Of a stretch of DNA of 64,000 nt, positions 48,001 to 51,000 are shown piece by piece (the first letter of the stretch is position 1; the number at the start of each line of letters is the position of its first letter). This DNA is from a plasmid. The position numbers were made by a program. The stretch lies in the NCBI RefSeq assembly GCF_988243305.1, contig NZ_OZ547138.1; one strand, given 5' to 3'.

Positions 48001-51000
48001 AAGTGCTTCCTTTGTTTTTAGAATGCGCTTGATATCCATTTCATCCCGCCCGGTCATTCTTTTTCCGGACAAAAGACGCTCAAGAAGCTCCTGTTTCGCA
48101 TCAGGAGAATCTTTGGCGAGATCCATCAGGTTAAGCAAATCTTCACGATCGAGAGGAAAGAAGTATTTTACAAAATACTTGAAAAGCGAAAGAAAGTAGT
48201 ATGCTGTCCATGCAATACAGAAACCGATTCTGAGAAACTCATTGTCAACTATACAGAAATACAGGTATACAATCAGGAGAATAGGTAAAATCCATAATAC
48301 TATAGCTAAAAAAATATATACGGGGATCAGGCGTCTGTATGCCCGTTCATGTTTATTCAGGATGAATAAAATCTTCTCCGCTTCTGAATCACACATAACA
48401 TTCTCTTCCCATTTTTTCTGATACGTAATGTCCACCTGTTATCAGGAGTGTTTATTGCCCAGAAATATTCTCCTGCTGTGCCTGCGTCCTGAGCCACTTT
48501 TGTTCTAATGTCGCCAGTCTGCGACCGGCACTCTGTGCTTCAGAGTCTGAGACCTGCCCTTTGGGGTGACCATCCAGGCCATAACGTGGGACGCCGGCGA
48601 CAGCTGTCCGCTGCAGATATACGCGGCGGGATGTGATGCAGGACACTGCACAGAGCCATTCGTCCATGGTCAGTTCTGTCTCCGGGTGTTCTGCCAGAAA
48701 TGCCGAAATATCATTGCTTATGCCAATTTTCAGGGGAATAAATCCACCACCTTCAGCACGAAGATGAGGAAACAGGGCCTTTATTTTTTCCACGCACTCG
48801 TGAGTATACTCACGGGTCCAGTGGGAGGGACGTGGAAAACGGTGTCTTTTCTTTTTCTTCTTCCTGGCTGGCGCTTCGGGGATATGTGTTTCGACGGCAG
48901 ATGAATTTATTCCGGCGGGGGCTGATTCTGCCGTCTGTTCAGTAAATACAGGTGCGATAATATCTGTTTTTTCGGATAAGGACGGTGGCGAAAAAGTACG
49001 ACGTTTTTTCACCACAATGACGGGAGTTTTCCTTTCTTCCTGATTTTTTCCCATAAATACCTCGGCTGGCTGGTTTTACTCTTTAATAATATCACAATCC
49101 ATAAATTAGTAAATTTCCCATCAGGTGATTTTTCATGGCTAATAAGTCCATTCTCTGAATATTTATACTCGAGGTAGTTACAGTTATGGCGTGACAGTCG
49201 AATTGATATTCTACTGAACCCTGACAGAAACATGGTTGATATATTCTCTCACTTTAATGTTGTCATGATATAAATAAAAACAATTCATTTGAAAGGATAT
49301 CAGAAGAAGATATCGGGGCGCACAGTTCATCTCTGCCTTTGTTTCATGGGGGGTTCTTTGTATATTTTACTTACTGTTTAAGCATGTACATAAGGAGTGC
49401 TTTCATTATGCCAATGATACTTGTAAAGAAGAATCCCCGGGGCAAAGTGATTCGGGAGCTTAGCAGTGAGGAAGAGACTGCAGTAAAGACGGTCTGTGGA
49501 CTGAAAAGGCCAGCAACCATGGCACAACATAACCTGGCCAATGATCTTCTCCGGGAAATGCGTGAGTATGATGCATGGTTACAGTGTGACTGTATTCCGG
49601 GAGATTCGCCGGCCATGAATTTTGCTGCTCTTAAAAACAATACGGGTACTCTTTATCTGTCCAGTTTTAATCATGAGCATGCACCTGAATGCCCCATGTA
49701 TCGTCAGTTATCCGGAAATGAAGAGGAAACATCCTTCGGAGCAAGCCGGCATCCCGTTAGCACCCGTATAAATTACAGAAACTTTTTACCACCTGATGAC
49801 AGTAATTCTGTTATCAGACTGCAGGCCCGCTCTGCTTACCATAATGGTGAGCGCTCCTCCGTTCGCAAGAAACGTCCGCGCCTTGGCCGTTTACTCCTGT
49901 CGCTTATTGAAGATGCAGGGCTGAATAAACTGGATTCCCTGGCTAATCCCCGTATCCGGACTAATTATCGTGAGTGTCTTGATGCCATACGGCAGGTTAC
50001 ACTACAGCAGGAGTATATTCGGGGAAGAGCCTTATCTGAAATTATCCATTTCCGGCCAGGAATGTCTGAAAGGTCTCAGGAGCGGTTAATGGAAACGCTG
50101 GAGAATTCAGAACGACACTGGCCTGCCAGAAGAAAGCATATGTTCTTTCAGATTTTTATGGCGCAGCACATCTGTCGTGATGCTGTGGAAATTCACTGGG
50201 CGAACGGTAATATTCAGGTCATCAGACCTGTGCGGGGGATCAGTATTAATGGTGAAGCGCAGGGCGGAATACGTCCCCCTTACTGGGTTATTCTTGCTTT
50301 TTGCCGGAGTGCCGATGGCAGAATCATCTGCAGTGAAGGGTATGCTCATGCTCTTTATCAACTGACATGTCCGGTGCCTGTGGACAGCAAACTGGAACGA
50401 AACACGCTCACTGCTCTTCTGAATGTGGCCAGCTGGCTTAAAAGAAAGCCAGGTACGCCGGAATTAAGTCTGGAAAGGCCCCTGTTTGATACAGAAGTTT
50501 ATGTTAATGGTGAAAAGAAATATGTACTGCCGGATTTCATTGTCACAGCAAGGGCTCCTGACGGAAAGACGGCCAGAGTGGTCATCGAAACGATGGGATA
50601 TGAAGACAGTGATTACTGCGCGAGAAAATCCAGGCAGCATACCGGCATGAAGCAGATTGGTGTTCTGCATACCGATCCACCGAAATGGCTGGATAATGAT
50701 CATCCCCCTTTTAAGAAACATATGTACGGTGTTTTTATGCATCTCAGGTACTGAGATATTTTGTGGCTCAGTTCTGTAACTTTTCCCGTAACATTGTCTG
50801 TTGTTACGGGAAAGTCCGGTTTTTGTATTGCACCAGAGAATACCCAGACTGTGATGCTGCCACAGTGTCAGCAGGCTTTCTGAACGGTATAACACCACTT
50901 CATGTTAATGATAATTACTATCATTAAATCTTGACATGCCATTTTCTCCTTAATAAATTAGTACTGTATATGTATCCATATACGTAAGCAGTTAATTCAT

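Follow-up and report, generated by a model that had tools for sequence, protein, structure and literature searches.

A plasmid FinO-domain gene near the Inc/repZ replicon is fopA, and its product very probably acts as a chaperone of the antisense RNA Inc

The closest described relative of the protein considered here is YafB of the Salmonella Typhimurium SL1344 plasmid pCol1B9, to which Gerovac et al. (RNA 2020, PMC7491321) gave the new name FopA. Its position in a gradient shifts upon RNase treatment, and in RIP-seq the ~70-nt RNA Inc dominates the reads, with repZ mRNA co-enriched and the chromosomal RNAs STnc1590, STnc700 and mgtM enriched as well (PMC7491321). According to the same work, FopA binds Inc, the repZ leader and the Inc-repZ duplex (apparent Kd, ~1 µM), makes formation of the Inc-repZ complex about 7-fold faster, shields Inc from RNase A in vitro and builds up in stationary phase. 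The 4-U end of Inc was noted as an element that FinO domains recognise, and Inc/repZ and FopA were found to have the same phylogenetic distribution (PMC7491321). A review from 2023 describes FopA as a protein that binds and stabilises Inc, and states that repression of RepZ by Inc/FopA lets the plasmid control its own copy number (PMC9977716). The primary paper of 2020 holds neither a fopA deletion mutant nor a measurement of plasmid copy number (PMC7491321), and for this reason the effect of FopA on copy number is something that we infer. In the later searchable literature we found no in-vivo phenotype of a fopA mutant, be it in copy number or in repZ expression, and a TraDIS study of I-complex plasmids leaves fopA unmentioned. 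In classical in-vitro work, antisense regulation by Inc operates without any added protein.

Another relative involved in replication is PcnR of the IncI2 plasmids (pHNSHP45). It, too, carries a FinO domain, is about 200 aa long and resembles FopA in its N-terminal KKTPVIVVKKRR motif. Its gene is located ~1.9 kb downstream of the antisense-controlled repA, and PcnR represses replication. Deletion of pcnR raises the copy number of IncI2 about 10-fold (PMC8053102), which shows that the clade of FopA is able to control replication in vivo. With 36% identity to FopA over 176 residues, PcnR belongs to a related branch and is not an ortholog. Nevertheless, it strengthens the expectation, reasonable in itself, that FopA would influence copy number in vivo. 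PcnR is reported to bind the stem-loop of the repR leader itself, with no need of the antisense RNA (PMC8053102, PMC9977716), and the IncI2 leader, unlike that of IncI1, contains no pseudoknot of the IncI1 type.

FinO of F-like plasmids (1dvo) has the same fold and is likewise a plasmid-encoded chaperone for one pair of cis-antisense RNA and mRNA; as with FopA, the antisense RNA is protected and duplexing is promoted. The client of FinO is FinP/traJ, and thus conjugation, whereas the client of FopA belongs to replication control, and the N-terminal regions of the two proteins differ. Among solved structures, the best sequence and fold matches of FopA are ProQ (5nb9) and RocC of Legionella (7rgs-7rgu). 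Both of these are chromosomal, in contrast to the plasmid-borne FopA, and ProQ is a global RNA binder with a C-terminal domain that FopA does not possess (PMC7491321).

The window, by which we mean the whole 64,000-nucleotide stretch of plasmid DNA that was analysed, is identical in sequence to E. coli plasmid p1-S1-KEN-03-A (NZ_CP145695) and spans the origin of that record. The plasmid is typed as IncI complex, MOBP/MPF_I, and its resistance genes are blaCTX-M-15 and qnrS1. Plasmids of the IncI complex are major carriers of ESBL genes. The 603 bases of the gene (Table 1) are 100% identical to positions 5713-6315 of ColIb-P9 (NC_002122), and fopA of pCol1B9 has the same coordinates in its own record, for which we used RefSeq NC_017718 as the reference sequence (the accession cited in PMC7491321 is HE654725). 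The encoded protein is of the same length as FopA of SL1344 and aligns with it without gaps, 197 of the 200 residues being identical. The three substitutions (P23L, S113N and T190M) all fall into alignment columns that vary among homologs. The gene order yafA-fopA-yagA is common to the window, ColIb-P9, pCol1B9 and R621a, and the replicon is of the Inc/repY/repZ type, as in pCol1B9. All descriptors given for FopA in PMC7491321 are found here: a mass of 22 kDa, yafA and yagA as flanking genes, Tyr146 and Arg157, and two positively charged stretches in the N-terminus. Orthology with fopA follows from sequence identity, from synteny and architecture, and from the presence of the cognate RNA. Since fopA was already described in 2020, along with what its product does biochemically (PMC7491321), the locus presents no new biology.

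The same DNA recurs at 99% identity or more in about 1,000 plasmids of PLSDB, nearly all of them conjugative and coming from Escherichia, Salmonella and Shigella, and the exact protein lies in a cluster of 3,123 members; fopA is thus not a chance ORF. A mis-called ORF or an overlapping gene was also considered and rejected, since small ORFs on the opposite strand are unsupported and the fopA frame is kept across homologs. The start codon is preceded at a distance of 5 nt by the ribosome-binding site GAGG. Upstream there is a sequence that resembles an extended -10 promoter; because promoter-like sites are no more numerous in this region than in its shuffles, we treat it as a candidate.

Table 1. 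Positions of fopA, its protein regions, its neighbours and the Inc/repY/repZ replicon in the window
Feature	Position	Strand	Size or sequence	Basis or remark
fopA (yafB) CDS	48452..49054	-	200 aa, 22.4 kDa, pI 9.5	ATG-to-stop ORF, uninterrupted
Basic N-terminal extension of FopA	48806..49054	-	residues 1-83, mostly predicted disordered	composition, pLDDT
ProQ/FinO RNA-binding domain of FopA	48497..48805	-	residues 84-186, incl. Tyr146, Arg157	Pfam PF04352
Candidate fopA sigma-70 promoter	49086..49113	-	TTTACT, 16 nt, TG-TATTAT, extended -10	consensus match only
yafA	47902..48396	-	164 aa, predicted membrane protein	annotated in ColIb-P9, pCol1B9
88-aa ORF	47636..47902	-	88 aa	start overlaps yafA stop
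Inc antisense RNA	43034..43102	-	~69 nt	ends inferred from promoter and U-tract
Inc promoter	43109..43138	-	TTGAAT, 18 nt, TATACT	
repZ mRNA leader (PK-repZ)	43030..43180	+		Rfam RF01087, 173.9 bits, E=2e-39 (gathering score 44)
repY leader peptide ORF	43116..43205	+	29 aa	overlaps repZ start codon
repZ (annotated repA), replication initiator	43193..44224	+	343 aa	GTG start

The original prediction, made from the sequence alone, had described a basic N-terminus followed by a C-terminal region resembling the FinO fold, and both parts of this description were borne out. The first 83 residues contain 18 K/R against 9 D/E and have a pI of 10.4. They include two basic runs, KKRR at 16-19 and RKKKKKR at 64-70; among 20 homologs, K16, K17 and R19 never vary and K65 and K67 hardly do. 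In the AlphaFold2 model the pLDDT stays below 50 across most of residues 1-62, which predicts disorder. The profile search that the prediction had called for returned PF04352 with E=2.9e-12 and 47 bits, covering positions 4-102 of the 109 in the model. This is the single Pfam domain of the protein, whose chain ends at residue 200, right after the FinO domain and one further helix. Tyr146 and Arg157 are invariant in the 20 homologs; their counterparts in the alignment with E. coli ProQ (5nb9) are its conserved Tyr and Arg.

The AlphaFold2 model was built with 20 homologs as input and is of moderate quality, its mean pLDDT of 66.7 being lowered by the disordered N-terminus; residues ~78-198 are folded, with pLDDT of 70-93. 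When the model was compared with the PDB by Foldseek, FinO-domain structures filled the top 26 ranks and accounted for all significant matches, among them RocC (7rgt/7rgu), FinO (1dvo), NMB1681 (3mw6) and Lpp1663 (6s10), with probabilities up to 1.00 and TM of ~0.5 normalised to the target. A sequence search of the PDB gave ProQ 5nb9 (E=1.5e-5) and RocC 7rgs, 7rgt and 7rgu. Profile, fold and key residues thus place FopA of the window in the ProQ/FinO domain family, and it is predicted to bind RNA. Assignment to ProQ itself was tried and rejected: the score for the equivalog NF003434 is 24.9 bits, where the cutoff is 127, and there is no second domain.

The gene had further been placed about 5 kb from an antisense-controlled replicon, and this distance proved correct, with 5,350 bp between the 5´ end of Inc (~43102) and the fopA stop codon; from the repZ stop (44224) to the fopA stop codon there are 4,228 bp. 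The strong Rfam match to PK-repZ marks the leader of repZ mRNA, and Inc is antisense to it. Inc consists of a 5´ tail of 13 nt, a single long hairpin with the loop motif CGCCAA and a 3´ UUUU; its fold has an MFE of -33.3 kcal/mol (z = -6.0). The CopA-like match to the Inc strand is weak (29 bits, under the gathering score). In the leader, UUGGCG of stem-loop I is at 43061-43066 and the pseudoknot partner CGCCA at 43175. PK-repZ was the sole Rfam family with a hit above threshold in the 64-kb window; FinP had none. The Inc/repY/repZ circuit of the ColIb-P9 type is present and intact in the window.

The Inc allele found here differs in the upper stem and the loop flanks, the parts that determine incompatibility, from the prototypes of IncI1 (ColIb-P9/pCol1B9) and IncI-gamma (R621a), and it is rarer than the allele of pCol1B9. 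The CGCCAA/UUGGCG motif and the stem are retained.

We propose with high confidence that FopA, a FinO-domain protein carried on the plasmid, works as an RNA chaperone and has as its main client Inc, the ~70-nt antisense RNA made by the same plasmid. The suggestion that it serves as a chaperone for Inc was part of the original prediction; it is supported and not new, as the activity has been shown for the FopA of pCol1B9 (PMC7491321). In such a scheme, the FinO domain (residues ~84-186), with Tyr146 and Arg157 in it, would grip the Inc hairpin at the terminator stem and the UUUU that follows at the 3´ end. Contact of the domain with the base of the hairpin and the 3´ tail is suggested by analogy with the complex of RocC and the RocR terminator (7rgu; PMC9674577). 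The basic, disordered N-terminus would aid binding and annealing, a role modelled on that of FinO. FopA would protect Inc from nucleases and, at the same time, speed up pairing of the CGCCAA loop with UUGGCG in stem-loop I of the repY-repZ leader. Such pairing would stop translation of repY and formation of the pseudoknot that translation of repZ requires. The outcome would be less RepZ initiator and hence a low copy number of the plasmid. We presume that FopA also serves the variant Inc allele of this plasmid. The classical Inc/repZ circuit of antisense control has FopA as its protein cofactor. Counting against this explanation are the chromosomal RNA ligands, the occurrence of FopA-like genes on IncF-type mosaics with no Inc or CopA within 8 kb, the ability of Inc to regulate in vitro with no protein added, the difference between the Inc allele of the window and the one used in PMC7491321, and the absence of a fopA mutant phenotype from the literature searched.

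The contribution of FopA to the circuit might be weighted differently. In vitro, FopA kept full-length Inc safe from RNase A (PMC7491321), the review has FopA bind to Inc and stabilise it (PMC9977716) and the protein accumulates in stationary phase, all of which would suit a protein that chiefly stabilises Inc and raises its steady-state level, rather than catalysing annealing. However, direct measurement showed duplexes to form seven times faster with FopA, the half-life of Inc with and without FopA is unreported, and stabilisation can coexist with annealing; we therefore regard stabilisation as rather unlikely to be the chief function. The behaviour of PcnR, which shares 36% identity and the KKTPVIVVKKRR motif with FopA and reportedly acts on the stem-loop of the repR leader itself, raises another question. 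Could FopA repress RepZ synthesis mainly through the repY/repZ leader mRNA, independently of Inc? Its affinity towards a fragment of the repZ 5´UTR is about equal to that for Inc, and repZ mRNA is co-enriched in RIP-seq. Yet Inc rather than repZ dominates the ligands in vivo, and it is the pairing of the two RNAs that becomes sevenfold faster. Moreover, the IncI1-type pseudoknot is missing from the IncI2 leader, so the IncI2 and IncI1 systems are not equivalent. Altogether, we find such a direct, Inc-independent mode improbable.

The enrichment of STnc1590, STnc700 and mgtM in RIP-seq, together with the persistence of FopA variants on mosaic plasmids with no Inc/repZ nearby, might also be taken to mean that FopA mainly regulates chromosomal transcripts and that its binding to Inc is secondary. 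Given that Inc dominates the reads, that Inc/repZ and FopA share their phylogenetic distribution (PMC7491321) and that in I-complex plasmids only 1.6-4.2 kb separate fopA from the gene of the replication initiator, we consider this very improbable. The weakest rival is a FinO-like repressor of conjugative transfer, a fertility role that the original prediction had left standing beside copy number and that found no support. It draws on the FinO domain in common, on some database entries titled 'Fertility inhibition FinO-like protein' and on a weak match of the NCBIfam FinO model that covers residues 7-194. This match (NF010317) reaches 25 bits against a cutoff of 136. Neither FinP, searched for with Rfam, nor traJ was found in the 64-kb window of the 126-kb plasmid; the transfer system, MOBP/MPF_I, is I-type and not F-like, and the top FopA ligands named in PMC7491321 include no tra transcript. 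FopA was accordingly rejected as a FinO in the strict sense, and we give the fertility idea hardly any credence.

The clade of FopA reaches beyond Inc/repZ plasmids. A tblastn search placed the FopA clade in 3,247 plasmids, and the copy in R621a is 92% identical. A homolog with 49.5% identity is located 2.3 kb from repA in an IncK2/Z plasmid, whose leader is of the PK-repZ type. A variant of 205 aa with 65-69% identity adjoins repZ in one I-complex plasmid. Mosaics of the IncF type and pESI-like ones have it as well, and in pMS6193B a genuine CopA RNA, belonging to an IncFII replicon, is ~2.9 kb away. When four loci of this variant were scanned with Rfam, neither Inc nor CopA was found within 8 kb; in one of the four (L012), the origin of the record cuts the locus off shortly before the leader of repZ. 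These loci are samples and not a census. The variant loci with no Inc or CopA in their vicinity imply that strict adjacency of FopA and antisense RNA fails outside the I-complex backbone, and the FopA-like genes on IncF-type mosaics that FopA is not strictly tied to repZ.

At identity of at least 99%, the 151-nt leader of the window occurs in only 31 of the 1,888 matching PLSDB records. Here, such a rare Inc allele is accompanied by a FopA identical to that of ColIb-P9, and this combination fits recognition of structure rather than of allele-specific sequence. Tentatively, one may imagine that proteins of the FopA clade recognise structure and assist all antisense RNAs of the CopA/Inc/RNAI class that control replication, and are not partners dedicated to one Inc sequence. 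This is a possibility to which we would not give even weight; the pairing with a rare Inc allele, the CopA neighbour in pMS6193B and the IncK2/Z homolog keep it open. If it is true, then FopA of one plasmid could act in trans on the copy-number RNAs of co-resident plasmids.

The immediate surroundings of fopA suggest that it may not be transcribed alone. The next gene, yafA, begins 55 nt downstream on the same strand, and a scan for terminators gave nothing convincing on the minus strand between the two; terminator-like sites called within fopA were dismissed as consensus noise in coding sequence. Co-transcription of yafA with fopA may thus take place, and the 88-aa ORF is a possible third gene of such an operon. 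No NCBIfam family was matched by yafA, the 88-aa ORF or yagA. The hydrophobic segment of the YafA protein extends over residues ~22-52.

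The Inc/stem-loop I segment of the window (43030-43110) differs in its upper stem and in the flanks of its loop from the IncI1 prototypes (ColIb-P9 and pCol1B9) and also from the IncI-gamma prototype R621a. The spacer of the Inc promoter is 1 nt longer than in these prototypes, and the CGCCAA/UUGGCG loop motif is kept when the allele is compared with ColIb-P9, pCol1B9 and R621a. Of 1,888 matching PLSDB records, only 31 carry the 151-nt leader at 99% identity or more to the window sequence. We suggest that the window may harbor a distinct incompatibility subtype, paired with standard FopA.

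The surroundings of fopA were compared with those in the same plasmids. Between repZ and fopA, the window contains a toxin-antitoxin pair and an exonuclease gene; R621a is without this insert, so that the distance between repA and fopA there is just 1.6 kb. A yafA-like gene follows fopA in R621a as in the window, and yagA adjoins fopA in ColIb-P9, pCol1B9 and R621a as well. The 164-aa YafA has a long hydrophobic segment (residues ~22-52) and is likely a membrane protein. No terminator-like site was found on the shared strand between fopA and the two small genes downstream of it. Neither these two genes nor YagA matched any NCBIfam family.

Features of the window and of plasmid pMS6193B (NZ_CP047407)
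Feature	Sequence	Position	Strand	Remark
yacA/yacB	window	45134-45681	+	type II toxin-antitoxin pair; between repZ and fopA
3'-5' exonuclease gene	window	45721-46569	+	between repZ and fopA
yafA and overlapping 88-aa ORF	window	47636-48396	-	both 3' of fopA, same strand
yagA	window	49408-50754	+	448-aa product; divergent from fopA
colicin Ib gene	window	51033-52913		downstream of yagA
colicin Ib immunity gene	window	52931-53278		downstream of yagA
IS26 transposase	window	53471-54175		intact ORF; resistance island
qnrS1	window	55534-56190		intact ORF; resistance island
blaCTX-M-15	window	60831-61706		intact ORF; resistance island
FopA variant	pMS6193B	7001-7618
CopA RNA	pMS6193B	10527-10617		bona fide; IncFII replicon

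A FopA variant of 205 aa, 65-69% identical, is found on IncF-type and pESI-like mosaic plasmids (pMS6193B, our locus L005; also loci L004, L010, L011 and L013). It resides in a conserved module of a 258-nt ORF, a 591-nt ORF, an AAA ATPase and the ProQ/FinO gene itself. In pMS6193B, about 2.9 kb separate the variant from CopA RNA, the replication-control antisense RNA; in three other loci scanned, neither Inc nor CopA was found within 8 kb of the variant.

On the window itself, a resistance island (53471-61706) adjoins the colicin Ib immunity gene.
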